The translations under genes were made by a program, and so were the position numbers. DNA of 64,000 nt from an uncultured Chloroflexia bacterium (GTDB lineage Bacteria; Chloroflexota; Limnocylindria; Limnocylindrales; CSP1-4): the NCBI GenBank assembly GCA_963707215.1, contig CAVPPB010000003.1, forward strand, positions 736,001-800,000. Reading direction: 5' to 3'. The notes beneath the pieces were generated by a model that was not told the origin of the DNA, did no database searches, and saw only the letters and a program-made list of their open reading frames with translations. Shown piece by piece: positions 1-14,163 of this stretch (positions are counted from its first letter, which is position 1; every line of letters begins with the position of its first letter).

Positions 1-621
1 CTCAACGCCCGACATCTCCTCTACTCCGCCGCCATGGTCCCCTGGCTCGGCGGCGTGTCCCGATCCCGCCGGGCGGTGATGGCCCACGTGCTCACCGACG
101 AGGCCTTCGCGCTCTCGATCGCCCACTTCCGGCGGATCGGGCGAGTGGACCTGGGCGGCTACTGGTGGGCCGCCATCGTCGTCACCTTCATCCCCTGGAA
201 CCTGGCAACGCTCGCCGGGGTCCTGCTGGGCGGTGCCATCGCGGACCCGAGCCAGCTCGGGATCGACGTCATCTTCCCGGCCGCCATGGCCGGGCTGGCC
301 CTGGGTCTCGCGGTCGGGCGGCGCGAGATCGTCGCGGCCGGTGCCGGGGCCGTCATCGCGGTCGTCGCCTCGCTGGCCTGGGATCCGGCCGGCGGGATCA
401 TCGTCGGCGGGATCGCCGGGCCGGCGGCCGCCATGGCCCTGCCGAGGAGCCGGACCGCCCCGATGAACCCGGTCCCGCTGGGTACCCGTGCCGTGACCGA
501 TGCCATCGACGTCGAGTCCGCCGAGGAGGCCGGGCTGGCCGGTTCCGGGGAGGGCGTCGAGGCGTCGGCCGACGGCGGTGCGGACCTCCCTCCGGACCCG
601 GAGATCGGGGTCACGCCGTGA
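1..621 (+). CDS. azlC: AzlC family branched-chain amino acid export permease (5'-truncated by window edge)
   Basis: Frame +1 is open from base 1 (LNARHLLYS...AHVLTDEAFA). Both NxRHxxY and LTDE are AzlC motifs; hydrophobic; followed by an AzlD-like gene. Confidence 0.85.
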   Translation, partial: LNARHLLYSAAMVPWLGGVSRSRRAVMAHVLTDEAFALSIAHFRRIGRVDLGGYWWAAIVVTFIPWNLATLAGVLLGGAIADPSQLGIDVIFPAAMAGLALGLAVGRREIVAAGAGAVIAVVASLAWDPAGGIIVGGIAGPAAAMALPRSRTAPMNPVPLGTRAVTDAIDVESAEEAGLAGSGEGVEASADGGADLPPDPEIGVTP

Positions 622-950
622 GCCCCGACCTTGTCCTGCTGGCCCTGCTCATGGGTGCGGTGACCTACCCGTCGCGGGCCCTGCCGATGCTGGCGCCCGG
701 TGTCGAGCGACTCCCGCCGCGGGTCCTCGAATACCTCCGCCTCGTGGGCCCCGCGGTCCTGGCGGCCCTCGCCGCGACCAGCACGATGATCGCCGTCGAC
801 GCCGATCGGCAGGCGTCGCTCCACGTCGGCATCGAGTGGCTTGCGGTGCTGGCCTGCCTGGCCGTCGTCCGCTGGCGGGGCAACCTCTTCCTGGGTCTCG
901 CGGTCGCGGTCGCCATCGCGGTGGCGGCGAGAGCGACGGGCCTGGCCTAG
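618..950 (+). CDS. azlD: AzlD domain membrane protein
   Basis: GTG start overlaps the azlC stop (GTGA). MGAVTYPSRALP and YLRLVGPAVLAAL match the AzlD pattern. Confidence 0.8.
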   Translation: MSPDLVLLALLMGAVTYPSRALPMLAPGVERLPPRVLEYLRLVGPAVLAALAATSTMIAVDADRQASLHVGIEWLAVLACLAVVRWRGNLFLGLAVAVAIAVAARATGLA

Positions 951-1831
951 GGTCTCGCTCCCGGCGGAACGGCCGGGTCCAGGATCCACGCGGCCGCCGG
1001 CCCGGGGTCGAGGTAGGCGGCATGGCCGAGCCCATCGAGCGCGACGACGGTCCGTCCACCGGCTGCGGCGAGGTGCTCCGCGATGGTCCTGAAGACCGCC
1101 ACCGACCTCGTGCCGAACGCGAACCGGATGTCGACGGACGAGGAACGCAGCGCTGGCAGGTCGGGGTGCTCGGCCGTCAGGGCGAGGTCCTCCCGCACCA
1201 GGGCCTCGGCGTTCTCGTCGCCACGGGCGGCGTACCACTCGCGGCCCGGGAGCGGCTCGAAGAGGCCCCGCGACGAGGCCCCGGGACCGGCCGCCGCCCG
1301 GCCGAGCGCGGCGACAGCACCGACCCAGTCACCGGGACGATCCGCGAGGTGGGCCGCGACGGCCTCGTCGCCGCGCCGTCGGAGGGTGGCGCCCTCGGGG
1401 ACGAGCGCGAGGTAGCCAGGCTCGAAGACCAGGGCGCGCGCCACGATCGAGGGGTGCCGGAGCGCCAGCTCGAGCGCCACGATGCCGCCGGCACTGCCCC
1501 CGAAGACGGTGGCGCTCCCGAGACCCAGGGCGGCCAGGAGCGCGGCCGCGTCGTCGGCATGGATCGCGGAAGCGCCGGTCGGCCAGCCGTCCCGTCCGCT
1601 CCGGCGGGTCCCTCGGCGGTCGTAGGTCACGACCGTCCGGCCGGGCAGCCGCTCAGCCAGCGGGCGGAGGACCTCGGCGTCCTCGTCGGCCGCCCCGACC
1701 AGGAGCACGGCTGGGCCCGTCCCCCGGATCTCGGCATAGAGGCGGGTCCCGTTGACCGCGACCTCCGCCGGACGTGGCTGCTCGGCGCCGGGCAGGGCGT
1801 CCGGGTTCGGCCCGGTCATCGGGTGGCTCAC
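947..1831 (-). CDS. alpha/beta fold hydrolase
   Basis: YAEIRGTGPAVLLV, TYDRRG, GGSAGG nucleophile elbow, C-terminal GH motif. Confidence 0.85.
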   Translation of the reverse strand: MSHPMTGPNPDALPGAEQPRPAEVAVNGTRLYAEIRGTGPAVLLVGAADEDAEVLRPLAERLPGRTVVTYDRRGTRRSGRDGWPTGASAIHADDAAALLAALGLGSATVFGGSAGGIVALELALRHPSIVARALVFEPGYLALVPEGATLRRRGDEAVAAHLADRPGDWVGAVAALGRAAAGPGASSRGLFEPLPGREWYAARGDENAEALVREDLALTAEHPDLPALRSSSVDIRFAFGTRSVAVFRTIAEHLAAAGGRTVVALDGLGHAAYLDPGPAAAWILDPAVPPGARP

Positions 1832-3021
1832 CCTGGGTTCCCGTCGGTCGAGGCCAGCAGGCTCGTCGGGTCGCTGGTCGCCAGCACCTCGGCGAGGATG
1901 GCGCCCCAGAGCATGGGCTCGTCGGCGACGAAGAGCCCGGCCGTGCCCCGGTACGGGCGCAGGTCGTCGAGCGAAGCGGCGCCACCGTCGTAGACCTCGA
2001 TGACCGTCCGGTCGCGCTCGACGACGGCCCGGTAGGCCGCCTCCACGGCCGGTGCGTCGGGGGCCGCGACCCGCCGGCCCAGCCGCAGGTACATCGCCCC
2101 GAGCGAGGTCCAGATGGCGGTGCCCTGGTAGTCCGGCACCAGGCGCCGCTGGAGCGGATCCTCCGCCTCGGGGTCGCGGCGGCTCGCGTAGCGCAGCGGC
2201 AGGGGCGCCGCCAGGCCGGCCCGACGCGCGCCGGCCAGGGCCTCGCGGAGACCGTCGTCGTCGTCGAGCGCCCCCACCTGCCAGGGCAGGACCGCGGCAT
2301 CGCCGGTCGGCTCGTCGGTGTCGGCCCGATCGACCATCGTCCCGTCGGGCCGCCGGAAGCGGGCCAGGAAGCGGTCTCGGACGTCGGCGGTGGCCGGGCT
2401 GGCGAACCAGTCCGTCTCCCGGAGGACCCGGTCCAGCAGGACGAGCATCGTGTTGTTGGCGCCGTTCGAACGGGTCCGCAGGGTGTCCCGGTGGGACGAG
2501 TAGGCCCGCTCGTCGCGGACCAGGCCGGTGCCCGGGTCGACGACCTCGAGGGCGTAGCGCCGGATCTCGGCTCGAAGCCAGTCGCCATGCCGGGCGACCA
2601 GCCGGTCCCCTTCTGGGCCGACGACCTGGAGCGAGCGGAGGACCAGGGGCAGCGAGTCGGCGCCGAGGGTCCAGACGTCCCGGGGACGGCGACCGGGGAA
2701 GATCGTCGTCGTGACCCGGCCCTCGCGTGACCAGGCGTCGAGGGCCCAGGCCAGGCTGGCGACGGCACGCTCTCCCAGGTCCAGCGTCATGAGCGAGGGC
2801 ACGGCGTAGGCGAGGTCACGGGTCCAGAGCTGGACGAAATGACCGCCGGAGGCCGCCAGGTACTCGCCCGTCCAGCAGGCTTCCACGGCGGCCCGGGCGA
2901 TGGCCCCGGCGTCCGCGCCGGGGAGCCGCCGGGGCCCGCGCAGCCGACGCCGGACGATCCGGCCGGCGGAGGTCAGGTAGCTCGGCCAGAGGGCCGGGTC
3001 GAGCTGGGCACCGAGGCTCAT
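1828..3021 (-). CDS. (alpha/alpha)6-barrel glycoside hydrolase-like protein (GH100/GH133-like motifs)
   Basis: HFVQLWTRD (WxRD) and DYQGTAIW (Y-H/Q-x-G-x-x-W-like) motifs. Start placed at ATG 3021; stop overlaps the next start. Confidence 0.55.
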   Translation of the reverse strand: MSLGAQLDPALWPSYLTSAGRIVRRRLRGPRRLPGADAGAIARAAVEACWTGEYLAASGGHFVQLWTRDLAYAVPSLMTLDLGERAVASLAWALDAWSREGRVTTTIFPGRRPRDVWTLGADSLPLVLRSLQVVGPEGDRLVARHGDWLRAEIRRYALEVVDPGTGLVRDERAYSSHRDTLRTRSNGANNTMLVLLDRVLRETDWFASPATADVRDRFLARFRRPDGTMVDRADTDEPTGDAAVLPWQVGALDDDDGLREALAGARRAGLAAPLPLRYASRRDPEAEDPLQRRLVPDYQGTAIWTSLGAMYLRLGRRVAAPDAPAVEAAYRAVVERDRTVIEVYDGGAASLDDLRPYRGTAGLFVADEPMLWGAILAEVLATSDPTSLLASTDGNPG

Positions 3022-3031
3022 CGCGTCCGAC

Positions 3032-3406
3032 TCAGCGGGCGACCCGGCGGGCGTCGACCTCGATCTCGACACGCAGTGCCGGATCGATGAGGCCGGCCAC
3101 CACGACCAGCGTGGCAGCCGGCCGGATGGCGCCGAAGGCCTCGCCGTGGACCCGGAGCACGGTCGGGATGTCGGCCGGATCGACGACGAAGACGCGTGTC
3201 CGCACGACGTCGGCTAGGGTGAAGCCGCCCTCGGCGAGTGCCCGCTCGATGATCCCGAGCGCCGCCCGGGCCTGGGTCTCCGCGTCGCCCTCGGCCCCCC
3301 CGGTCGTCCCGGCCACCCAGCAGTCGTCGCCGTCCACGACGGCCCGGCTGTAGCCGGCCGGGCCCTCCCACGGCGCGCCGCTGGAGATCCGGCCGCGCTC
3401 GGTCAT
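3032..3406 (-). CDS. RidA/YjgF family protein
   Basis: SSGAPWE..GYSRAV, VAGTT, DVVRTR, RPAAT, VEIEVDA. Confidence 0.9.
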   Translation of the reverse strand: MTERGRISSGAPWEGPAGYSRAVVDGDDCWVAGTTGGAEGDAETQARAALGIIERALAEGGFTLADVVRTRVFVVDPADIPTVLRVHGEAFGAIRPAATLVVVAGLIDPALRVEIEVDARRVAR

Positions 3407-4668
3407 GTCCGGCGCCAGGCGGCGATGACGGGATCCCGTGCGATGGCCAGGAGGAGGGCCGTGAGGAGCGTGGTCCGCGGCACGATCGAGGCGACCTCGA
3501 GGTATTCCTCGGGCGAGTGGTCCATCCCGCCGATGGGACCCAGGCCGTCGAGGCTGGGGATCCCCATGTCGGCGGTCGTGTTGGCGTCGGAGGCCCCACC
3601 GGTCGCCGTGTCGCGGAGCTCGAAGCCCAGACGGCCGGCGAGGTCGACGGCCAGCTCGACGAGCCGTCCCGACCGCTCGAGCTTCTCCATGGGCCAGTGG
3701 CGGGCCACCTCCTCGAGCTCGATCGCCACGTCGGGCACGGCGGGCGCGGCGGCAAGGTCCCCGATCGCCGACTCGACGGCCTCGAGGGACTCACGGGTGA
3801 CCGCCCGGACGTCCACCTCGAGAACGGCCCGCTCGGCCACGACGTTGGGGCGGGTCCCGCCCTCCAGGACCCCGACGTTGACGGTCACGCCCGGCCAGCG
3901 GTCGTTGAGGGCATGAAGGGCGACGGTCAGGTGGGCCCCGGCGAGGGTCGCGCTCCGGCCCTTCTCCGGCTCGACCCCGGCATGGGCGGCGCGGCCGCGG
4001 ACCGTGACCCGGAGGTGAAGGTTGCCCTTGCGCGACGAGACGATGTCGCCGTTCGCCCGGGCGCATTCGAGGACGAGGCAGGCATCGGCGCCACTGGCCA
4101 CCTCGCGGATGATCGGCGTCGAGGACGGTGACCCGATCTCCTCGTCGGGATTGGCCACGAAGACGAGCTCCCGGAACGGCAGGAGCGGGACGCCGCTCTC
4201 TTCGCCCCCGCGCGAGACGCGCAGCGTACGGACGGCGTAGAGGCCGGCCAGCAGGCCCGACTTCATGTCGGTGACGCCGGGCCCTCGGGCGATGCCGTCC
4301 TCCATGCGGAACGGACGCTCGGCCACGGTCCCCTCGGGGAAGACGGTGTCCATGTGGCCGATGAGGACCAGGCGCGGACCGGATGGGTCGCCGACGATCC
4401 GGCCGACGACCGTGCCTCCCAGTCGGCTCGCGCCATCCGGATGGCGTACGACATCGGCTCCGAGACCGGCCAGGAACGCCTCGACGAAGTCACCGACCCG
4501 GTCGACACCCTCCGGCGTGAAGCTGCCACAGTCGATGTCTACGAGCCGGGCGAGGTCATCGAGGAAGGCTGGTTCGTCGGCCCGGACCGCCGCCTCGAGC
4601 ATGGCCAGCTCGGTCGGCTCGATGCCATGGACCGGCGGCAACCCGAGGTCGATCGCGGACGCTCCCAT
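3403..4668 (-). CDS. M20 family metallopeptidase, carboxypeptidase G2-like
   Basis: GHMDTV, GPGVTDMKSG, DEEIGS, LECAR, HAGVEPEKG, GGASDAN, HSPEE zinc-ligand motifs. ATG 4668 lies 8 nt after TAGACT. Confidence 0.9.
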   Translation of the reverse strand: MGASAIDLGLPPVHGIEPTELAMLEAAVRADEPAFLDDLARLVDIDCGSFTPEGVDRVGDFVEAFLAGLGADVVRHPDGASRLGGTVVGRIVGDPSGPRLVLIGHMDTVFPEGTVAERPFRMEDGIARGPGVTDMKSGLLAGLYAVRTLRVSRGGEESGVPLLPFRELVFVANPDEEIGSPSSTPIIREVASGADACLVLECARANGDIVSSRKGNLHLRVTVRGRAAHAGVEPEKGRSATLAGAHLTVALHALNDRWPGVTVNVGVLEGGTRPNVVAERAVLEVDVRAVTRESLEAVESAIGDLAAAPAVPDVAIELEEVARHWPMEKLERSGRLVELAVDLAGRLGFELRDTATGGASDANTTADMGIPSLDGLGPIGGMDHSPEEYLEVASIVPRTTLLTALLLAIARDPVIAAWRRT

Positions 4669-4722
4669 CGGGGCCGAGTCTACGGTCTGGAGCGCCCTGC
4701 GGCTTGCTATGCTGCGCCGACC

Positions 4723-6480
4723 GTGCGACTCGTCGAGATCCGCCTCCTCGAGGGGCCGAACGTCTACCGTCTGGACCCGACGGTCAAGATCGAGGTCGGC
4801 GTGGGGCGTCGGCGGACCTGGCGCGGGGACCGGACCGGCTCCCCGGGCGCCGGGCCGCGCCTGGGAGAGGTCGCCCCGACCCGTGACCTGCCCGACGAGG
4901 TGGTCGAGCTGGTGGCCTGGTGTCGGCGGCTCCGGACCGACGCGGGCGATGGCGTGGGCGGCGTGGCAGCGCACCGGGCTGCCGACCCGGGGCACTGGGT
5001 CGTGAGCTTCCCCTGGGCCGGGGCCGAGCGTGCCCGGGCGATCGCCGAAGCGGCCGTGGACCTGGTCGCCGCCGGCGTCGCCACCGGCCGCCGGGCCGTC
5101 CCGACCGGCGCCCAGGCCCGTCGGCTGGCGCGCTGGCAGGCGCGCATCGCGGATGCCCGGACGAGCCCGCCCGGCTGGTTCCGCGATGAGGACCGGCGGA
5201 TGCCGATCGTCTCGATCAGCGGCACGAACGGCAAGTCGACCGTCAGCCGGCTGATCGCCCACATCCTCCGCGGCTCCGGCCGGCGGGTCGGGATGACGAC
5301 CTCGGACGGCGTCTACGTGGGCGAGCGGCTCGTTGAGCCGGGTGACTGGACCGGGCCCGGCGGCGCCGCGATGCTCCTCTCGCGCTCCGACCTCGACCTG
5401 GCCGTGCTGGAGACCGCCCGCGGCGGCATCCTGCTTCGGGGTGTCGGCTACGAGTCGAACGACGCCAGCGTCCTCACGAACGTCGCCTCGGACCACCTCG
5501 ACCTCCAGGGCATCCATACGCTCGCCGAGCTCGCCGACGTCAAGGCCACCATCTGCCGGATCACCCGGCCCGACGGTTGGGTCGTCCTCAACGCCGACGA
5601 CCCGCTGGTCGCCGCGGTGGCCCGCCGGGTCACCGCCAGGGTCGCCCTCTTCTCGCTCCAGGGCGAGCGCTCCGGGCGGATCCGCCGCCACGTCGCCCGG
5701 GGCGGCCGCGCCTACCTGGTGATCGACGGGGCGATCGTCGAGGTGGAGAGCGGTGCGACACGGGCGATCGCCGGCGTCCGGGAACTGCCCATCGCCCTGG
5801 GCGGGCTGGCCCGCTACAACGTCGCCAATGCGCTCGCGGCCGCAGGCGGGGCTCGGGCGCTCGGAGCCACGCTCGATGAGGTCACCGAGGGCCTCCGGTC
5901 CTTCGAACCGTCGACCGATCGCTCCCCTGGCCGCCTCAACCTGTTCCGGCTCGGGTCGCGGGTCGTCCTCGTCGACTTCGCCCACAACGAGGCGGGCGTC
6001 GAGGCGATCCTCGAGGTGGCCGCCGAGATCGCCGGCGGGGCTGCCGGCCGAGCGTCGCCGATCACCGCCATCGTCGGGACCGCCGGCGACCGACCCGAGG
6101 ACAGCCTGATCGCCATCGGACGGGTCGCCGCCGAGCGGGCCGACCGGGTCGTGATCAAGGAGACCCTCGGCTACCTCCGCGGCAGGGAGCGCGGGGAGAT
6201 CGTCGCCCGTCTGCTGGACGGGGTGGCTGCCGGCGGTGGGGATCCGGACGCGGTGCCCGTCTACGTATCGGAGACGGCCGCCCTGCGATCGGAGCTGGCC
6301 CGCGCCGACGAGACCAGCGACGGCCGGCGCCAGCTCTCGGGCATCCTGGTCCTTCTCTGTCACGAGGAGCGTCCGGAGGTCCTGGGGCTCCTGGGCGAGC
6401 TCGGAGCCCGCGAGCTCGACGTGATGGCCGAGCTGCAGGACCTGGCGCCCAGGCTCGGAGATCGGTCCCGACACGACTGA
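4723..6480 (+). CDS. Cyanophycin synthetase-like Mur ligase (CphA N-domain + M-domain, lacking the ATP-grasp G domain)
   Basis: N-terminus VRLVEIRLLEGPNVY parallels CphA LRILETRVLRGANYW. Then ISGTNGKST, GMTTSDG, GDWTGP, ETARGGIL, TNVASDHL, VLNADDP, PGRLN, DFAHN. No ATP-grasp motifs. Confidence 0.85.
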   Translation: MRLVEIRLLEGPNVYRLDPTVKIEVGVGRRRTWRGDRTGSPGAGPRLGEVAPTRDLPDEVVELVAWCRRLRTDAGDGVGGVAAHRAADPGHWVVSFPWAGAERARAIAEAAVDLVAAGVATGRRAVPTGAQARRLARWQARIADARTSPPGWFRDEDRRMPIVSISGTNGKSTVSRLIAHILRGSGRRVGMTTSDGVYVGERLVEPGDWTGPGGAAMLLSRSDLDLAVLETARGGILLRGVGYESNDASVLTNVASDHLDLQGIHTLAELADVKATICRITRPDGWVVLNADDPLVAAVARRVTARVALFSLQGERSGRIRRHVARGGRAYLVIDGAIVEVESGATRAIAGVRELPIALGGLARYNVANALAAAGGARALGATLDEVTEGLRSFEPSTDRSPGRLNLFRLGSRVVLVDFAHNEAGVEAILEVAAEIAGGAAGRASPITAIVGTAGDRPEDSLIAIGRVAAERADRVVIKETLGYLRGRERGEIVARLLDGVAAGGGDPDAVPVYVSETAALRSELARADETSDGRRQLSGILVLLCHEERPEVLGLLGELGARELDVMAELQDLAPRLGDRSRHD

Positions 6481-6571
6481 CACCCGTCCGGGCAGCAGCC
6501 ACGCGCGCCGATCAGGCGCGCGCGGGCGGCCCCCGGGCCGACCGCGGCCCGGGTCGTTCAGGTACGCGTGA

Positions 6572-6973
6572 TCAGCCGGGCACCCGGCGGCGACCGCGGA
6601 GCATCCGAAGATGGCCCAGGAGCCCGATCAGAAGGATCGCCGTCGACCAGACGGGCAGCGTCCGGGCGACCGGGTCGGGCAGGAAGATGTCGGACACCCG
6701 CCCGTCGTCGGCGCCGAGATCCTCGGCGACCCCGGTCAGGGGACAGCGACCGCGGTTCGCCAGGAACACCCCGATCTCGACGGCGACGAGGCCGGCCGCG
6801 ACGGCTGTCGCCCGATCGAAGCGGCCACGAAGGCCGTCCCAGGTGAACCGAAGGATCGACCCGAGCAGCACGACGAAGATCGCGGAGTGGACGGTCTTGA
6901 TGGCGAAGAGCGCGATGCCCCGCGCCATTCCAGCGGCCCGCTGTCCCGTCTCCATCGCCGACTCGCTGGCCAT
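6572..6973 (-). CDS. small membrane protein with CPLT motif (DUF2784-like)
   Basis: Three hydrophobic segments, IKTVH and GRCPLT..AE motifs. ATG overlaps the cphA stop by 1 nt. Confidence 0.7.
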   Translation of the reverse strand: MASESAMETGQRAAGMARGIALFAIKTVHSAIFVVLLGSILRFTWDGLRGRFDRATAVAAGLVAVEIGVFLANRGRCPLTGVAEDLGADDGRVSDIFLPDPVARTLPVWSTAILLIGLLGHLRMLRGRRRVPG

Positions 6974-9921
6974 CAGCCCTCGGGCACCTCGAGCTCGCCC
7001 GGATCGGCGAACGCAGTCGTCCCGCGCTGGGCCCCGGCCAGCGACTGGGCCTCCTTGTAGACGCCGATCGCGTCGTCGACGCACATGACGACGAGGTCGC
7101 CGGGCACGGCCCGCCGCAGGGCTGCCCGGGCGGCCGTCAGCTCGTCGAGGATCGTCTCGGCTCGACTCGCCCGGGAAGTCCCGGCGTCGCGGGCCCGACG
7201 GGTCCCGGTCACCACGTTCCCGGCGCTCTCGCCCGGCTTGCGGCCCCGGAGGTTGCGGTCCTCGCGGACGACGATCTCGTCGAAGGCGCCCGCGGCGAGC
7301 TCGCCATAGGTGACCTGGTCGTCGTCGAGTCGGTCGCCGGGGATCCCGATGACGCCGATGGCCCGGCCCGTCCGACCCGGCTTCGCCTCGGCGACGCCCC
7401 GGGCGGTCGGCGGTCCGTCGGGCTCCTCCATCATCCGGGTCACGAAATCCGAGAGCTGGCGCATGCCGTCGACGTTGTGGCAGTAGTCGATGATCACGCG
7501 GACGCCGCCGACCTCGAGGAGGTTGAGCCGGCCCGGCGCCTGGAAGAACGACGTGGTGAAGGTTCGCAGCCCCTGGCGGATGTCGTGGAGGTGAGCGCCC
7601 GACGCCCAGGCGGCAGCCGCGGCCGCGAGGGCGTTGGCGACGTTCATCCGGGCCCGGCCGCCGAACGTCGCCGGGATCAGGTGGGTGTAGAGGACCGGCA
7701 TCGTGCGGGGGCCTAGGCGCAGGACGACGAGCTCGCCCTCGGGAGTCCGCTGGAGGCAGAACGCAGCGCCGCCCCGGCCGAGGTGCCCGTCCACGCGGTC
7801 ATAGCCGTCCTCGCCCTTCCCGGTCTGCATCGAGAAGAGGACGACCCGACCCGACGAGTGGCGGGCCATCCGGGCGACCAGCGGGTCGTCGGCGTTGAGG
7901 ACGGCCGTGCCCGAGCGCGGGACCGCTTCGACGATGACGGCCTTGACGTTGGCCAGCTGGCCGAGCGAGGTGATCCCGCCCAGGCCGAGGTGGTCGCCGG
8001 TGACATTCGTGACGACGGCCACGTCGTTGCGGTCGTAGCCCAGGCCCTCGCGGAGGATGCCGCCCCGGGCGACCTCGAAGACGGCCGTGTCCACGGTCGG
8101 GTTCTGGAGGACCATCTGGGCCGACTTCGGGCCCGACATGTCGCCGCGCTTGATCATCCGGCCGTCGACGACGATGCCATCGGTCGAGGTCATGCCGACC
8201 CGCCGGCCCATCAGCTTGAGGATGTGCGCGAGCATCCGGACGGTCGTGGTCTTGCCGTTCGTCCCGGTCACCGCAAGGATCGGGATGCGGGCCGGCTTCC
8301 CGGGCGGGAAGAGCAGATCCATGACCGGGCGGGCCACGTACTGCGGCTCGCCCTCGGTCGGGTGGGTGTGCATCCGGAAGCCGGGCGCGGCGTTGACCTC
8401 GACGATCGCGCCTCCGGTCTCGCGGACCGGCGTGGCGATGTCGGGGCAGATGAAGTCGATGCCGGCGACGTCGAGGCCCACGACCCTGGCCGCGGTCTCG
8501 GCGATCTCGACATTGTCGGGATGGGACTCCATCGTCCGGTCGATCGAGGTGCCGCCGGTCGACATGTTCCCGGTCAGGGCAAGCTTGATCCAGGCCTCCT
8601 TGGGCGGGATCCCGTCGATGGCGAAGCCCTGGGCGGCGACCAGCTCCTCGGCCCGCTCGTCGACGGCGATCTTCGTCAGGACCTTCTCGTGGCCGATGCC
8701 GCGACGGGGATCGGCATTGGCGATGTCGACGAGCTCCCGGACGGTGTGGATGCCGTCGCCGGTCACCGAAGCCGGGACACGCTCGGCCACGGCCGCCACC
8801 CTGCCCCCGATGACCAGGACCCGGTAGTCGGCACCGGCGACGTAGCTCTCGACGACGACGTCCCCGGAACGGCTCTGGCGGAGCGACTCCGGGAAGGCGG
8901 CCCGGACGTCGGCCTCGGAGCGCAGGTCGAGGGCCACCCCACGACCGTGGTTGCCGTCGAGCGGCTTGGTCACGCAGGGGTAGCCGATCCGCTCCGCCGC
9001 CGCGACGGCCTCGTCCGCCGTCTCCACGACGACGGCCCGCGGGACCGGCAGGCCGGCCGAGTCGAGAAGCTTGTTGGTCAGGCTCTTGTCGGAGGCGATG
9101 TCGACAGCGATCGCCGGCGTCCGCGAGGTCATCGTCGCCCGGATCCGCTGCTGGTGGACCCCCTGGCCGAGCTGCACCAGGCTGTAGCGATCGAGGCGGA
9201 TGTAGGGGATGTCGCGGCTGACGGCCTCGTCGATCAGGGCCTGGGTCGACGGGCCGAAGGCCTGCCGCTCGGCCAGCCGGATGAGGCGCTCGAGCTCGCT
9301 CCCGAAGTCGAAGTCGGAGGCCGACGGGTCCACCAGGTGGTTGACCAGGCCGACCGCCACCCTGCCAGCCTGCAGGCCGACGTTCTCCTCGCGGTACTCG
9401 TAGATGACGTTGTACTGGCCGGTCGGTCCGGCGCCGCGGGTCTTGCCGTGGCGGACGTCGGTCCCGGCGAGGTTCTGGAGCTCCAGAGCGACGTGCTCGG
9501 CGACGTGGCCGGCCCAGGTGCCGTCGCGGAGCCGGGTCAGGAAGCCGCCCCGCCGACCCAGCGAGCAGGCGTGGTCCTCGAGGCTCGGTAGGAGCTCGAC
9601 GAGGGTATCCACGAAGCCGGGGATCCGATCCGACGGGTACTCCTCCAGCGATCCGAGGTCGACGAGCATCCGGACCACCGGCTGGCGCGACCAGTAGTTG
9701 GCCCCGCGGAGGACCCGCGTCTCGAGGATCCGCAGGTCGGGCCGCGGACCGGCCGGGGCCTTGGGCCGCTTCGAGGCCCGGGAACGCGTCGCCGCCGGGG
9801 CCTTCGCCGCCCGTGCCTTGGGCGTCGCGCCCTTGCCGGCTGGCTCCCGCTCGGTGCCGCCGGTTCCCGCCTTGGCATCGGTCGACGCGGACCTGGATGA
9901 CCGGGCGGCGCGTTGGGCCAC
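6973..9921 (-). CDS. cphA: cyanophycin synthetase CphA1
   Basis: N domain with Cx19HxxEH; G domain FGPST, KPLDGNHGRGV, DPRRGIGHEKVLT, EVNAAPGFRMH; M domain VTGTNGKTT, EVARGGILREGL, PGRLN. Confidence 0.97.
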   Translation of the reverse strand: MAQRAARSSRSASTDAKAGTGGTEREPAGKGATPKARAAKAPAATRSRASKRPKAPAGPRPDLRILETRVLRGANYWSRQPVVRMLVDLGSLEEYPSDRIPGFVDTLVELLPSLEDHACSLGRRGGFLTRLRDGTWAGHVAEHVALELQNLAGTDVRHGKTRGAGPTGQYNVIYEYREENVGLQAGRVAVGLVNHLVDPSASDFDFGSELERLIRLAERQAFGPSTQALIDEAVSRDIPYIRLDRYSLVQLGQGVHQQRIRATMTSRTPAIAVDIASDKSLTNKLLDSAGLPVPRAVVVETADEAVAAAERIGYPCVTKPLDGNHGRGVALDLRSEADVRAAFPESLRQSRSGDVVVESYVAGADYRVLVIGGRVAAVAERVPASVTGDGIHTVRELVDIANADPRRGIGHEKVLTKIAVDERAEELVAAQGFAIDGIPPKEAWIKLALTGNMSTGGTSIDRTMESHPDNVEIAETAARVVGLDVAGIDFICPDIATPVRETGGAIVEVNAAPGFRMHTHPTEGEPQYVARPVMDLLFPPGKPARIPILAVTGTNGKTTTVRMLAHILKLMGRRVGMTSTDGIVVDGRMIKRGDMSGPKSAQMVLQNPTVDTAVFEVARGGILREGLGYDRNDVAVVTNVTGDHLGLGGITSLGQLANVKAVIVEAVPRSGTAVLNADDPLVARMARHSSGRVVLFSMQTGKGEDGYDRVDGHLGRGGAAFCLQRTPEGELVVLRLGPRTMPVLYTHLIPATFGGRARMNVANALAAAAAAWASGAHLHDIRQGLRTFTTSFFQAPGRLNLLEVGGVRVIIDYCHNVDGMRQLSDFVTRMMEEPDGPPTARGVAEAKPGRTGRAIGVIGIPGDRLDDDQVTYGELAAGAFDEIVVREDRNLRGRKPGESAGNVVTGTRRARDAGTSRASRAETILDELTAARAALRRAVPGDLVVMCVDDAIGVYKEAQSLAGAQRGTTAFADPGELEVPEG

Positions 9922-9962
9922 GGGCCTGCTCCCTCCTCGTCCGGCCGTCGGGGGCGGCCGGA

Positions 9963-10799
9963 TCAGCTCTCGGCGGCCTCCACCCCGGCCGCCGTCCGAA
10001 GAGTGGGGGTCGCGATCCGCTGGCGTCGGACCAGGTCGAAACGATAACCGGCCGGCAGCGAGTGGAGGACGACGTTGCTCACCATGACCGGCCGGTGCCC
10101 GCGGACGTCCCAGGCGTCGGTCTCGGAGGCCGACCCATCCACGACCGTGACGCTGCCCCGGCCGATGACCTCCAGGACATGGTCCGGGCCGACGACGCCG
10201 GCCGTGTCCTCGTCGACTCCCAGCCCCAGCAGGCTGGGGTTCTGGGCGATCAGGCTCAGCAACCGGCCCAGCCGGTTCCGCTGCTGGAAGTGCTGGTCGA
10301 CGATCACCCCGGGCAGCACCCCGAGCCCGACCGCGATCTGGGCCATCCGCTGCTTCGGCGTCCCGCCGGAGGTGCCGAAGGCGATCATGTGGCTGCTCAT
10401 CGCCGAGGCTCCCGCGGAGGTCCCCGCGACGACGTTGCCTGCTCGATGGGACTCCAGGATCGCCGCCGCGAGGCGGGTGGCGCCCAGCGTCGCCGAGAGC
10501 TTCAGCTGGTTGCCGCCGGTCAGGAAGACGCCGGTCGAGGCCCCGACCAGGGCGACGGCGGCCTCGTCGTCGGCCTCGGCTCGGGTCGTCGCGTGGATCG
10601 GATGGACACGACGGACACCGAGATCACCGAAGACCTCCCGGTAGCGCTCGGCCGCCTCGACCCCCAGCGACGAGGCCGTGCTGATGACCGCGATCTCGGC
10701 CCGCGGGCCACCGGCCAGCGCCACGAAGCGCTGGAGGATGACACGGTCGCGGAACCTGTCCTCCGCGCCCCCGATGACGATGACGGTGCCGTCGGCCAC
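9963..10799 (-). CDS. cphB: cyanophycinase (peptidase S51)
   Basis: IGGAED, TGGNQ, GTSAGA (catalytic Ser), DQHFQQRNRLGRL, GVDEDT; immediately upstream of cphA. Confidence 0.95.
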   Translation of the reverse strand: MADGTVIVIGGAEDRFRDRVILQRFVALAGGPRAEIAVISTASSLGVEAAERYREVFGDLGVRRVHPIHATTRAEADDEAAVALVGASTGVFLTGGNQLKLSATLGATRLAAAILESHRAGNVVAGTSAGASAMSSHMIAFGTSGGTPKQRMAQIAVGLGVLPGVIVDQHFQQRNRLGRLLSLIAQNPSLLGLGVDEDTAGVVGPDHVLEVIGRGSVTVVDGSASETDAWDVRGHRPVMVSNVVLHSLPAGYRFDLVRRQRIATPTLRTAAGVEAAES

Positions 10800-10926
10800 G
10801 ACCCGGCGAGCCCTCCCGAACGTTCGCGTGAGGATAGCAAACGGGCCGGAGCCCGCCGGCGAGGCCCCGCGGGGATGACCCGGCGGAGGCGGTCGCGCCC
10901 GGCAGGGTGGACCGCCGACGGCCGGT

Positions 10927-13017
10927 TCAGTGGATCGGGCCGACCGCCTGGTCCAGCGAGGCGCCCCGGAACTCCGACGTGTCCACGAGGCGATGGATCC
11001 TGCTGAGCAGCTCGCGGGCGCTGGCGGGCTTGACCAGGTAGTCGCTGCAGCCGATCGCCTCGGCCTCGGCGATGTCGGCCGCGCTCGAGTTGGCACTGAC
11101 GATCACGATAGGGACGTCGAGGCCGGCCGAGCGGACCTGGCGCGCCAGCTCCAGGCCGCTCCCATCGCCGAGGCCGACGTCGAGCACGATGATGCCGGGC
11201 GTGGACAGCTGGAGCGCCTCTTGGGCAGCCGCCAGGCTCGCCGCCTGCTGGACCTCGTAGCCGGCGCTCGAGAGGACATCGGTGACGAGCTCACGGGCCG
11301 TCGCGTCGTCTTCGACCACCAGGACCGGCACGGACCCCGGCGGCGGAGCGGGCGGCAGTGGCATGATCCGGATCGAGCGGTCGCGCGGCGACGCGATCCG
11401 GACCCCCGGCAGCGAGACGACGAAGGTGCTGCCGATCCCGTACGTGCTGGAAACGTCGATCGAGCCGCCGTGGAGCTCGCAGAGCCGCCGGGCGATCGCC
11501 AGACCCAGCCCCGTGCCGGAAGAGGTCGAGCCCAAACGCTCGAAGGGCTCGAAGACGCGGTCGAGGCTCTCAGCCGGGATGCCGACCCCGGTGTCGTGGA
11601 CGGCGATCCGGACGTCCGCTTCGTCGATGGACGAGTCGATCCAGACGCGCCCACCGGGGGCCGTGAACTTGATCGCGTTGGTCACTAGATTGAGCAGCAC
11701 CTGCCGGAGGCGGAGTGGATCCACCAGGACCCTGGCCTCGGTACGGTCCACCGCCGCCAGCTCGACGCCACGATCGCGAGCGACCGGGGCGGCGGCATCC
11801 ACGGCCTCGAGGATCAGGGCCTGGAGCTCGATCGGCTCGGGGTGCAGCTCAAGGTGGCCCGAGTTGATCCGGGCGAGGTCCACGACGTCGTCGATGAGGC
11901 CCAGGAGGTGCTTGCCGCTGGCGTGGATCTTGGTGCCCAGCTCGCGCATCCGATCCTCGGTCAGGGCGCCGAGCGCGGGATCGCTGACGAGCTCGGCCGC
12001 GATCAGGATCGAGTGCACCGGCGTGCGCAGCTCGTGGCTGACCGTGGCCAGGAATCGGAGGCGCTGCTGCGCCCCCTGCTCGAGCTCGGCGTTGAGGCGG
12101 TCGAGCTCCTCGACGAGGCGGGTCATCCGGCCGTGGATCCGGGCGTTGACCAGGGCGCCTGCGGCGTGCGCCGCGAGGGCGATGGCGAGCTCGCGATCCG
12201 CGTCATCGAACTCCGCCCGGCCGACCTTGTTGGCGAAGTAGAGCCTGGCCAGCATCTCGCCGTCCTTGACGACCGGGACCCCGAGGAACGACGTCATGAC
12301 CGGGTGGCCTCTCGGCACGCCGACGGATGCCTGGTGAGCCCGGAGGTCGGCCAGCATCACCGGACCGCTGTCGGCGGTGATCAGCCCGAGCACGCCCCTG
12401 CCGACCGGGAGCGGCCCCATCCGCTCGACGGTCTCGGGCTCGATGCCCTGGTGCAGGAACCGGTCGGTCGCCCCCTCGTCGCCGACGACGAGCATCGCGG
12501 CGTACTGGGCGCCCATGATCGACCGCGCCATCGTCAGGATGAGGTCGTGCACCTGCGCGGGCTCCCGGACGTCGGCCAGGGCGAGCATCGCCGAGCGGAT
12601 CCTGGATTCAGAGTCGCGGGCCCCGTCGATGACGGACTGCAGCGGGCCTCGATCGATGACGGTGACGAGCAGGGCGTCCGGTCCTGCGAGGGGCCGCTCC
12701 GGTCCGCCGGGCCGATCGTGCCACGGCCGCACGAGCAGACAGACGGGCATCGCGCGACCATCCGGGGCGACCATCCGGCACTCCACGTCGACGGCATCGG
12801 ACCGGCCGGCGAGGACCGCGCGCGCCCGTTCGACGATGCCAGGCGCGTCGCCGGGATCGAGCGCCCCGGCCAGGGACCGAACCTTGAGAACGCCAAGGTC
12901 CATGCCGACCAGCTCTCCGAACGGAGGGTTCGCGTGGACCCACCGGAGATCTCGGTCCAGCACCGCCATCGCCAGTGGGACGGCGTCGACCAGGTCGCGG
13001 ATGTGCTCGGATCCCAT
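10927..13017 (-). CDS. hybrid sensor histidine kinase (PAS-GAF-HisKA-HATPase-REC)
   Basis: PAS-like start; DosS-like GAF (GRGVLG...GHPVMTSFLGVP); SHELRTP H-box; NLVTNAIKFT, DTGVGI, GTGLGL; C-terminal receiver (VVEDD, LD, KP). Start uncertain (13017-13248). Confidence 0.9.
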   Translation of the reverse strand: MGSEHIRDLVDAVPLAMAVLDRDLRWVHANPPFGELVGMDLGVLKVRSLAGALDPGDAPGIVERARAVLAGRSDAVDVECRMVAPDGRAMPVCLLVRPWHDRPGGPERPLAGPDALLVTVIDRGPLQSVIDGARDSESRIRSAMLALADVREPAQVHDLILTMARSIMGAQYAAMLVVGDEGATDRFLHQGIEPETVERMGPLPVGRGVLGLITADSGPVMLADLRAHQASVGVPRGHPVMTSFLGVPVVKDGEMLARLYFANKVGRAEFDDADRELAIALAAHAAGALVNARIHGRMTRLVEELDRLNAELEQGAQQRLRFLATVSHELRTPVHSILIAAELVSDPALGALTEDRMRELGTKIHASGKHLLGLIDDVVDLARINSGHLELHPEPIELQALILEAVDAAAPVARDRGVELAAVDRTEARVLVDPLRLRQVLLNLVTNAIKFTAPGGRVWIDSSIDEADVRIAVHDTGVGIPAESLDRVFEPFERLGSTSSGTGLGLAIARRLCELHGGSIDVSSTYGIGSTFVVSLPGVRIASPRDRSIRIMPLPPAPPPGSVPVLVVEDDATARELVTDVLSSAGYEVQQAASLAAAQEALQLSTPGIIVLDVGLGDGSGLELARQVRSAGLDVPIVIVSANSSAADIAEAEAIGCSDYLVKPASARELLSRIHRLVDTSEFRGASLDQAVGPIH

Positions 13018-13365
13018 GTGCCGCCCAGGCCCTCTCCGCTCCAAGCCCGGCGGGATCGCCGGGGGACGCGCGCCGGTCGGGCGATTGTGCTCGTTGGAAC
13101 CGAGGGCGTCTACCCGCATCCGGGGGGTCTCCGGGCCGGGGTGCCGCTCCGGGTGCAGGGGACGGCCTGCTGCATTCGCGGGGCCGCTCCATCGGCTGCT
13201 GCGTGCGGCGCCCGTTGACGGCGCCGGTATGGTTGAGGCTCGGCTCACCGCTGCCGTGCCGGATGTGGTTCCCAGGGTACGTGCCCGCCCGGGGAGGACC
13301 GACCGGCGCTCGGGGAGGGGCGGGGTCGATCATGGGCCTGCGTCTTCCGGGGGAGGAGGACGAGG

Positions 13366-14163
13366 ATGGCAGGGGGTGTCTTCGGCCGACCCGAGATCGG
13401 CTCGACCGGTCCGCACGTAGAGGAGCGGGCCGCGCCGGTCCCGGGCGGGGCGCGCTCGAGCAGCGCCACCGGTCCGGTCCGCCCACCCGAGACGGCTCCG
13501 GCGAGCCCGATCCGGGTGATGGTGGTGGATGATCACCTGGCGTTCGCGGAGGCGCTGGCCATGGTCATCACCGCGCGCCCGGATCTCGACTGCCCGGTCA
13601 TCGCGACGTCGATCACCGACGGCCTGCGGGCCGCGGAGCGCGAGGCCCCGGACGTGATCCTGCTCGACGTGCTGCTCCCGGACGGCGACGGCGTCGACGC
13701 GATCGACCGGTTCCGCGACGCCGCGCCCGGTACCCGGATCCTGGTGCTGACCGGCCACATGGACCTCGACGTGCTGACGCGAGCCGCGGCCTCGGGGGCA
13801 AGCGGCTTCCTCCAGAAGGAGAGCAACGTCGAGGCGATCGTCCGGGCCATCCGGGCGGCACGGGACGGCACGATCCTCGTCGAGCAGGCGACGCTGACCT
13901 CGATCCTCGGCCGGGTCCGCCAGGGCGCCGCCTCGGCCGGGGCGGCGGACGACCGTCCCCACCTGACCGCCCGCGAGATGGACGTCCTCGCCCTGATGGG
14001 CGAGGGGCTCGACCCGCACGCCATCGCCCAGCTGCTCGAGATCAGCCTCAATACCTGTCGTGGCTACCAGAAGAGCCTCATGGCCAAGCTGGACGCCCAC
14101 AGCCAGCTCGAGGCCGTCGTGATCGCCACGCGCCGAGGGATCATCCAGCCGCCCAAGAGCTGA
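13366..14163 (+). CDS. NarL/FixJ family response regulator (REC + LuxR HTH)
   Basis: VVDDH, LLDVLLPDGDG, GASGFLQK, LTAREMDVL..G....IA..L.IS..T; GGAGGA RBS upstream. Confidence 0.92.
   Translation: MAGGVFGRPEIGSTGPHVEERAAPVPGGARSSSATGPVRPPETAPASPIRVMVVDDHLAFAEALAMVITARPDLDCPVIATSITDGLRAAEREAPDVILLDVLLPDGDGVDAIDRFRDAAPGTRILVLTGHMDLDVLTRAAASGASGFLQKESNVEAIVRAIRAARDGTILVEQATLTSILGRVRQGAASAGAADDRPHLTAREMDVLALMGEGLDPHAIAQLLEISLNTCRGYQKSLMAKLDAHSQLEAVVIATRRGIIQPPKS

Follow-up and report, generated by a model that had tools for sequence, protein, structure and literature searches.

We describe a cyanophycin synthetase-related protein encoded in a 64,000-nucleotide stretch (hereafter the window) of contig CAVPPB010000003.1, from the assembly GCA_963707215.1 of an uncultured Chloroflexia bacterium (positions 736,001 to 800,000 of the forward strand). 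The protein, referred to here as N'-M, is a shortened CphA-type N domain (N') joined directly to a complete CphA-type M domain, and its gene is an old companion of one CphA1 lineage. We put at roughly 0.5 the probability that N'-M is an active, free-standing, ATP-dependent amide ligase of the CphA M type that works in cyanophycin metabolism alongside the adjacent CphA1, and whose incoming substrate is probably not arginine.

An initial annotation of the window, made from the sequence without database searches, had placed a 585-residue open reading frame (ORF) next to a complete cphA. Both calls proved right: the neighbouring gene product reached 1122 bits against TIGR02068, above the cut-off of 850, while N'-M scored 379.7 bits, below that cut-off, and aligned only with model positions 474-840 of 862. 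Pfam searches of N'-M identified Mur_ligase_M at residues 165-375 (68.2 bits, gathering cut-off 24) and Mur_ligase_C at residues 403-529 (33.0 bits, gathering cut-off 28.4), and revealed no ATP-grasp family and no PF18921, the CphA N-domain family, at E<=0.01. The same threshold gave the same picture for 46/46 aligned family members, in which both Mur families (PF08245 and PF02875) are present, and ATP-grasp and PF18921 are absent. These searches and the alignments confirmed that N'-M lacks the G domain and the N-domain motif Cx19HxxEH. The M-domain motifs quoted from the sequence (GTNGKST, ETARGG, TNVASDHL, LNADD, PGRLN and DFAHNE) are all present.

We also considered a MurE-, MurF- or FolC-type identity, and rejected it. 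The best MurE model of NCBIfam scored 111.8 bits with a cut-off of 373, and MurC, MurD, MurF, FolC, MurT and PgsB all scored lower and below their own cut-offs. Among solved structures, the five top matches were CphA1 chains (7lg5, 271 bits, residues 149-530 on 481-848), and the first match outside CphA1 was a MurE-like protein at 69 bits. M-domain identity is 41% between N'-M and the neighbour's CphA1, and 40-45% between N'-M and the solved structures of CphA1. TIGR02068 and the CphA1 chains score far above the Mur models, so that one outcome named in the initial annotation as refuting its reading, a closer similarity to MurE, MurF or FolC, did not arise.

N'-M shares with CphA1 (TIGR02068; 7LG5, 7LGJ, 7LGQ, 7WAC) a homologous N region, a homologous M domain made of Mcore and Mlid, and the same gene neighbourhood. 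It also carries the M-domain residue set that marks a CphA1, but not the G domain, the full-length score or Cx19HxxEH; its N domain is shortened, four motifs around the substrate sites are changed, and it belongs to a separate clade. Like CphA2 (7TA5, 8FXH), N'-M is a reduced CphA paralogue with a single catalytic domain, which would likewise act next to CphA1 on cyanophycin-derived material. In CphA2, as described in PMC10273328 and PMC9427784, the G domain is active, whereas the M domain is truncated and inactive, with both P-loop and Mlid missing. N'-M does not have this layout. It is the opposite reduction, with a full M domain and no G domain, and the comparison with a mirror image of CphA2 drawn from the sequence thus holds. 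Furthermore, CphA2 is described as cyanobacterial, whereas the phyla with N'-M are Chloroflexota, Actinomycetota, Planctomycetota and a few others. With MurE and the other Mur ligases (PF08245, PF02875), the likeness lies in the fold family and in a chemistry that proceeds through an acyl-phosphate intermediate to amide formation. Unlike MurE, N'-M has no Mur-type N-terminal domain binding uridine diphosphate, and its equivalent of the DNPR motif reads [YF]-L-R.

The relationship of N' to the CphA N domain is weak by BLAST, with residues 1-89 aligning with CphA residues 63-145 at E 5e-4. Profile comparison with hhalign of 38 family N regions against 33 CphA1 N domains gave a probability of 96.2% (E 2.7e-9, 103 columns), bearing out the CphA-type N domain seen at the start of the protein. 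The best Protein Data Bank (PDB) match of the N' profile was the N terminus of cyanophycin synthase (E 0.036). Conservation of N' is highest in its first 22 residues, which form the first strand and loop (E5, R7, L9, G11, P12, N13, P19 and K22). This conserved start corresponds to the CphA1 N-domain loop that packs on the M domain, reported to include Y14 and I17 in SuCphA1 (PMC9262961). N' most likely packs against Mcore in the manner of CphA1, and may also help hold polymer. The stretch corresponding to Cx19HxxEH is shortened in N' and has no His/Glu motif, while this motif is invariant in 33/33 CphA1 N domains sampled, including that of the neighbouring CphA1. A search with a profile of N' only returned 506 cluster representatives at E<=0.001, many of them fragments, and none of the best 150 has the length of a CphA1.

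To map the active site, N'-M was aligned with the structure chains of SuCphA1 and TeCphA1. PMC9427784 reports roles in TeCphA1 for four residues at ATP and Mg (K499, T500, T522, E558), two at adenine (N497, F692) and two in Mlid (R731, H748). In N'-M, the first four correspond to K171, S172, S194 and E230, and the others to N169, Y365, R404 and H421, respectively; the Mg ligands by alignment are S172, S194 and E230. D585-H586 of SuCphA1, the pair mutated in the M-inactivating construct (PMC9262961), corresponds to D257-H258. K171, E230, D257, H258, R404 and H421 are invariant in 46/46 family members. We then compared 28 family members with 61 CphA1 M domains, the set used for all motif comparisons below. 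Fifty-seven of the 66 columns conserved at >=85% in the CphA1 M domains keep the same residue at >=85% in the family. The M domain of N'-M is predicted to be active, as all mapped ATP, Mg and catalytic residues are kept.

Alignment of N'-M with the MurE encoded by the same genome (hhalign, 99.8%) superimposed the P-loop, the Mg-binding Glu, the DH-type motif and the PGR and DxAHN motifs. K274, also invariant in the family, aligns with a lysine of this MurE that we take to be the carbamylated lysine. Furthermore, ratios of nonsynonymous to synonymous substitution rates (dN/dS) ranged from 0.13 to 0.30 for M and from 0.12 to 0.36 for N' over 18 pairs of >=72% identity, with some dS values near saturation. 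These low ratios indicate that both N' and M are under purifying selection.

The N'-M family is large. A word-index search retrieved 5093 proteins at E<=0.001 among 8000 candidates scored. The best 120 relatives listed are 579-624 residues long and >=63% identical over 99-100% coverage, carrying the name 'Mur ligase family protein' or, in the automatic annotation of the Joint Genome Institute (JGI), 'cyanophycin synthetase'. A locus scan with one genome per species left 80 loci, comprising 41 with an N'-M gene and 39 with CphA1 only. The 41 loci come from metagenome-assembled genomes (MAGs) named Chloroflexota/Limnocylindrales, Thermomicrobiales, Actinomycetota, Methylomirabilota and Planctomycetota, including a few probable mis-binnings. 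cphA1 was present in 38 of them, in convergent orientation (35 loci) or co-directional, in the orders gene-cphB-cphA (2 loci) and cphB-cphA-gene (1 locus). cphB was found in 30/41, and an M20 peptidase gene in 23/41 compared to 0/39 of the CphA1-only loci. All-against-all clustering of the neighbouring ORFs revealed no further partner common across clades. The three N'-M loci without cphA are two short contigs and locus L060; the genomes of L060 and L069 carry cphA1 on a separate contig, and no cphA was seen in the fragmentary MAG of L058.

Samples taken by phylum agree with this linkage, which the initial annotation had proposed to check by a neighbourhood survey; the other outcome that it had named as refuting, homologues without linkage to cph genes, did not arise either. 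Out of 201 Chloroflexota genomes searched, 26 have a CphA-type M domain and 25 have both genes, adjacent in 18. Among 301 Actinomycetota genomes, 33 have a CphA-type M domain and 32 have both genes, on one contig in 29; the 32 include an unpublished genome (G293), and one genome (G433) is ambiguous. Genes of this kind, which the initial annotation had mentioned near actinobacterial cph loci, are thus present in nearly every cphA-bearing genome of this sample. Both genes were found in 10 of 13 cphA-bearing Planctomycetota (201 genomes searched); in all ten, the N'-M gene immediately follows cphB-cphA and shares its strand.

N'-M could instead be a CphA-derived Mur-type ligase of another pathway, making a cell-envelope or small-molecule product, its linkage to cph genes being historical. 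In one Chloroflexota family (6 genomes), the gene is separate from cphA and has a membrane protein gene, proC and proS as neighbours; the neighbours of the L060 gene encode major facilitator superfamily (MFS) and ATP-binding cassette (ABC) transporters; and the donor-site loop and the amine site both differ from those of CphA1. However, the unlinked cases still carry cphA1 (all 6 genomes of that family, L060 and L069), N'-M without cphA occurs only in the fragmentary MAG of L058, and the arrangement in Planctomycetota is uniform (10/10). Moreover, the gene appears to decay in the true absence of cphA: the 35%-identical look-alike of two planctomycete genomes that have no cphA (L120, 4180-5931, + strand; L121, 8065-9597, - strand) keeps the P-loop but has lost the DH, ETARGG, GDR and YLRGR motifs. 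A role in another pathway is improbable on this evidence.

The L120/L121 look-alike follows a gene for a 743-753-residue protein of the ChaN/Tiki superfamily, near BlaR1/BlaI-like genes. The Chloroflexota family with the gene away from cphA has a lower G+C content (L117, L118 and L119). In these three loci, the gene for a 417-residue membrane protein (8019-9272 of L117, - strand) overlaps the N'-M stop codon, with proC and proS on the upstream side. This 417-residue protein has a weak match to an archaemetzincin-type metalloprotease (E 2e-6), far below the cut-off.

A tree of M domains was built from 28 family members and 61 CphA1s, i.e. 89 of 120 instances, after 17 near-redundant loci had been dropped. 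The M domains of N'-M form one side of a branch, apart from all sampled CphA1s, with a support of 99 in the Shimodaira-Hasegawa-like approximate likelihood ratio test (SH-aLRT). The partner CphA1s form one CphA1 clade, and the sub-clades of N'-M mirror those of their partners. Pairwise distances of N'-M and partner CphA1 correlate strongly across 22 loci (Mantel r 0.90, reached by 0/2000 permutations), with N'-M evolving somewhat faster (mean p-distance 0.50 vs 0.41). When MurE and MurF were added as outgroups, on branches exceeding 5 changes per column, N'-M was still recovered as one clade (99). The best outgroup tree placed it beside the Bacillota CphA1 clade (SH-aLRT 86), and monophyly of CphA1 was not rejected (approximately unbiased test, p 0.178). 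The trees fit both an ancestral N-M form and derivation by loss of G, because they do not fix the position of the root. The initial annotation had spoken of a deleted ATP-grasp domain, implying a recent derivative of the neighbouring gene. This view is contradicted by the tree, and we rejected a recent deletion copy of the neighbouring cphA since the family is an old, separate clade.

The near-obligate co-occurrence with one CphA1 clade, the mirrored trees and the correlated distances would also fit a structural or regulatory subunit, one that joins CphA1 in a hetero-oligomer and exerts its effect, for instance on chain length or activity, through binding and not through catalysis of its own. 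The conserved insertions peculiar to the partner CphA1 clade, such as a 4-residue insert, fit such a subunit too, as does the reported contact of Mcore with the G domains of other protomers in CphA1 (PMC9427784). However, any pair of linked genes should show correlated distances, and a purely structural subunit would not be expected to retain the ATP, Mg and catalytic residues in 46/46 members. The idle M domain of CphA2 has lost both P-loop and Mlid, and the look-alikes in planctomycetes lacking cphA have lost their motifs. We therefore regard a purely structural or regulatory role as very unlikely.

Four motifs set the family apart from CphA1. The first is the loop that the initial annotation had singled out as GDWTGPGGA here and GDMSGPKSA in the neighbouring CphA. 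The difference is diagnostic of the whole family, which reads GD[WYF][TS]G[PFY]xGA where CphA1 reads GDx[TS]GPxSA. The second follows the Mg-binding Glu and reads GG-I-L-L-R-G in the family and GG-I-L-R-x-G in CphA1. The other two are located in Mlid: the motif after GDR (GDR[TPS]D[DE][ISTL] vs GDRRD[ED]D) and the equivalent of the DNPR motif ([KA]-E-x-x-x-[YF]-L-RGR vs [RK]-E-D-x-[DN]-x-RGR). In the hhalign alignment, Y484-L485-R486 fall on the N-P-R positions of the DNPR motif of the genome's own MurE. The MurE motif is reported to bind the incoming amino acid by its side chain, and the Asp at the first position of the motif to bind the lysine amine in Staphylococcus aureus (PMC3829189). The acidic residues of CphA1 at the DNPR-equivalent site (58/61) and after GDR (52/61) are not kept in the family, and position -2 of the DNPR-equivalent site is Tyr or Phe in 28/28 members. 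Replacement of these conserved acidic residues by Tyr/Phe-Leu suggests that the incoming substrate is probably not arginine.

Conversely, N'-M could perform the same chemistry as the CphA1 M domain, adding arginine or lysine, on substrates that CphA1 handles poorly. Examples include internal bare Asp residues, in repair or re-arginylation, and free Asp or short fragments, from which beta-Asp-Arg-type primers that speed initiation would be made. The identity of 40-45% to CphA1 M domains, with every catalytic residue kept, is compatible with this possibility. The CphA1 M site is reported to take only a C-terminal unmodified Asp (PMC9427784), which would leave a niche for a second enzyme, and the minimal primer is reported to be (beta-Asp-Arg)-Asp (PMC9262961). 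Against it stand the loss of the CphA1 acidic residues and the Tyr/Phe at position -2. Moreover, the partner CphA1s keep the primer-making site Cx19HxxEH in their N domains (33/33), making an extra primer maker seem unneeded. Addition of arginine or lysine thus appears possible but unlikely.

If N'-M is the ligase proposed here, ATP-Mg would sit between Mcore and Mlid, and the carboxylate to be phosphorylated would, as reasoned from the CphA1 M domain, belong to cyanophycin or to one of its fragments. The substrate would be held in the cleft between N' and Mcore; the corresponding N-Mcore cleft is reported to hold the primer in CphA1 (PMC9427784). The acyl group would then be passed to an amine, probably other than that of arginine, as an isopeptide. 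Because it has no ATP-grasp domain, N'-M would not extend the poly-Asp backbone and would act in trans, on chains that the adjacent CphA1 has synthesised. An amine other than arginine would make the product an edited, capped or three-component cyanophycin.

Several observations weigh against this proposal. Polymer-binding residues are not recognisable in N', whose net charge ranges from -16 to +13 across the family (mean +4, standard deviation 8). The neighbouring CphA1 M domain is apparently active, judging from its residues, and leaves no missing function to complement. The argument for a substrate other than arginine is drawn solely from homology to MurE. Besides the L060 gene with its transporter neighbours, the N'-M gene is on a different contig from cphA in seven Chloroflexota, six of them in one family, and in three Actinomycetota. 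Furthermore, cphA occurs without an N'-M gene in G108, a complete Chloroflexota genome, in 3 of the 13 cphA-bearing Planctomycetota and in five named cultured genomes from four phyla. None of the 96 cphA-bearing Bacillota genomes (301 searched) has a recognised N'-M gene; 96 of the 98 stretches matched in this phylum lie in frames of >=714 residues, and the other two are fragments. Given these genomes, cyanophycin synthesis clearly does not need N'-M. Finally, co-transcription is not implied in most loci because N'-M and cphA are convergent.

The neighbouring CphA1 is complete, with its C-x19-HVAEH motif and D-H pair intact. Partner CphA1s have clade-specific changes but have lost no catalytic residue, and we rejected complementation of a dead M domain on these grounds. 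In this clade, LETARGG is mostly changed to FEVARGG (7732-7743 of the window, - strand), and the 4-residue insert of the M domain contains an invariant Gly in 27/27 members. The clade also has a Lys to Asn change in the G domain and further small inserts, and its catalytic residues are kept.

The nearest solved relative of the M20 peptidase encoded next to N'-M is carboxypeptidase G2 (1cg2, E 1e-43). Like 1CG2, it has the M20 catalytic and dimerisation domains. Unlike 1CG2 in its own context, it is encoded by a gene paired with a ligase gene in cyanophycin loci, and it scores below the cut-offs of named NCBIfam models. No IaaA or IadA was found in the genome, which is 85% complete. The M20 protein is a candidate for the 'missing' isoaspartyl (beta-Asp-Arg) dipeptidase, or could remove whatever the ligase adds. 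A more specific and rather doubtful proposal is that the cyanophycin of Actinomycetota, Chloroflexota and Planctomycetota is not plain Asp-Arg, N'-M placing a non-basic residue on backbone Asp side chains, or capping the C-terminal Asp with it, and M20 removing it. Such a switch, if true, could set chain length or solubility, or shield chain ends from exo-acting cyanophycinase.

Cyanophycin is described as being made by CphA1 or CphA2 without further enzymes, and N'-M represents a third, widespread architecture. We found no functional study or description of this architecture in the literature searched. The family may nevertheless have appeared in an earlier list without being studied, as a genome paper of 2013 (PMC3646047) includes a supplementary tree of 'cyanophycin ligase-like proteins'. 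PMC10206079, a survey dedicated to the bioinformatics of cyanophycin, does not mention it, and the words 'ligase' and 'truncated' are absent from that survey. If the proposed function is true, N'-M would provide an unrecognised pathway step (editing, capping or a third monomer) in two large soil phyla, and would bear on the interest in cyanophycin as a biopolymer. Actinobacterial phosphate accumulators of wastewater plants have been proposed to store cyanophycin (PMC12455942).

Table 1. Position of the N'-M gene, its modules and motifs, and the neighbouring genes in the window.
Feature	Position	Strand	Basis
N'-M gene (CphA paralogue without G domain)	4723..6480	+	ORF, translation, domain scans, homologue starts
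N' region, residues 1-150	4723..5172	+	shortened CphA-type N domain; hhalign, alignments, dN/dS
Mcore module, approx. residues 155-395	5185..5907	+	residue-by-residue alignment to SuCphA1 and TeCphA1 chains
P-loop G167-T173, within Mcore	5221-5241	+	
D257-H258, within Mcore	5491-5496	+	
Mlid module, approx. residues 396-530	5908..6312	+	R404, H421, G455-D456-R457
Y484-L485-R486-G487-R488, DNPR-equivalent site, family-specific	6172-6186	+	hhalign to genome's own MurE
M20 peptidase gene	3403..4602	-	Pfam, NCBIfam, PDB 1cg2; start ATG 4602 or 4668
Complete cphA1 (N-G-M)	6973..9921	-	TIGR02068 1122 bits; its residues 63-947 align to 7lg5
Cyanophycinase gene cphB (peptidase S51)	9963..11096	-	TIGR02069 249 bits vs cut-off 127; Pfam S51

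The G+C content of the window is approximately 74%. The frame of the N'-M gene runs from a GTG at 4723 to a stop codon at 6478-6480 and is open upstream to 4354, an extension that overlaps the M20 gene on the opposite strand. Homologues start aligning at the identical first residue, some with an ATG at that position, which shows that the GTG at 4723 and the coordinates first assigned to the gene are right. The M20 gene is head-to-head with the N'-M gene, the N'-M gene is tail-to-tail with cphA1, and cphB lies upstream of cphA1. N'-M and cphA are thus convergent and do not form one operon. cphB is probably co-transcribed with cphA, being directly upstream on the same strand. The start of cphB is uncertain, its homology beginning near residue 105. 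The cphA frame opens with about 60 residues rich in Ala, Lys, Arg and Pro (9742-9921, - strand), and the true start may lie downstream of 9921 because homology to CphA1 begins only at residue 63.

The stop codons of N'-M and cphA are separated by 490 bp, within which lies a possible ORF for a hydrophobic 118-residue product (6572-6928, - strand) with no Pfam or NCBIfam match. The gap varies from 19 bp to 3.8 kb in related loci, indicating that its content is not conserved. No sigma-70-like promoter or intrinsic terminator consensus was found in 4300-7200, and Rfam gave no match within 3000-11500. Adjoining cphB is a gene for a PAS-GAF hybrid histidine kinase with a receiver domain (10927-13248, - strand), and a gene for a LuxR-type response regulator lies nearby (13366-14163, + strand). 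On the other side of the M20 gene, the window encodes a 414-residue ORF product without any family match (1828-3072, - strand), an alpha/beta hydrolase (947-1831, - strand) and an AzlD-type branched-chain amino-acid transport protein (3-950, + strand). Synteny over this upstream region (3-3072) is partly common to Limnocylindria loci only.

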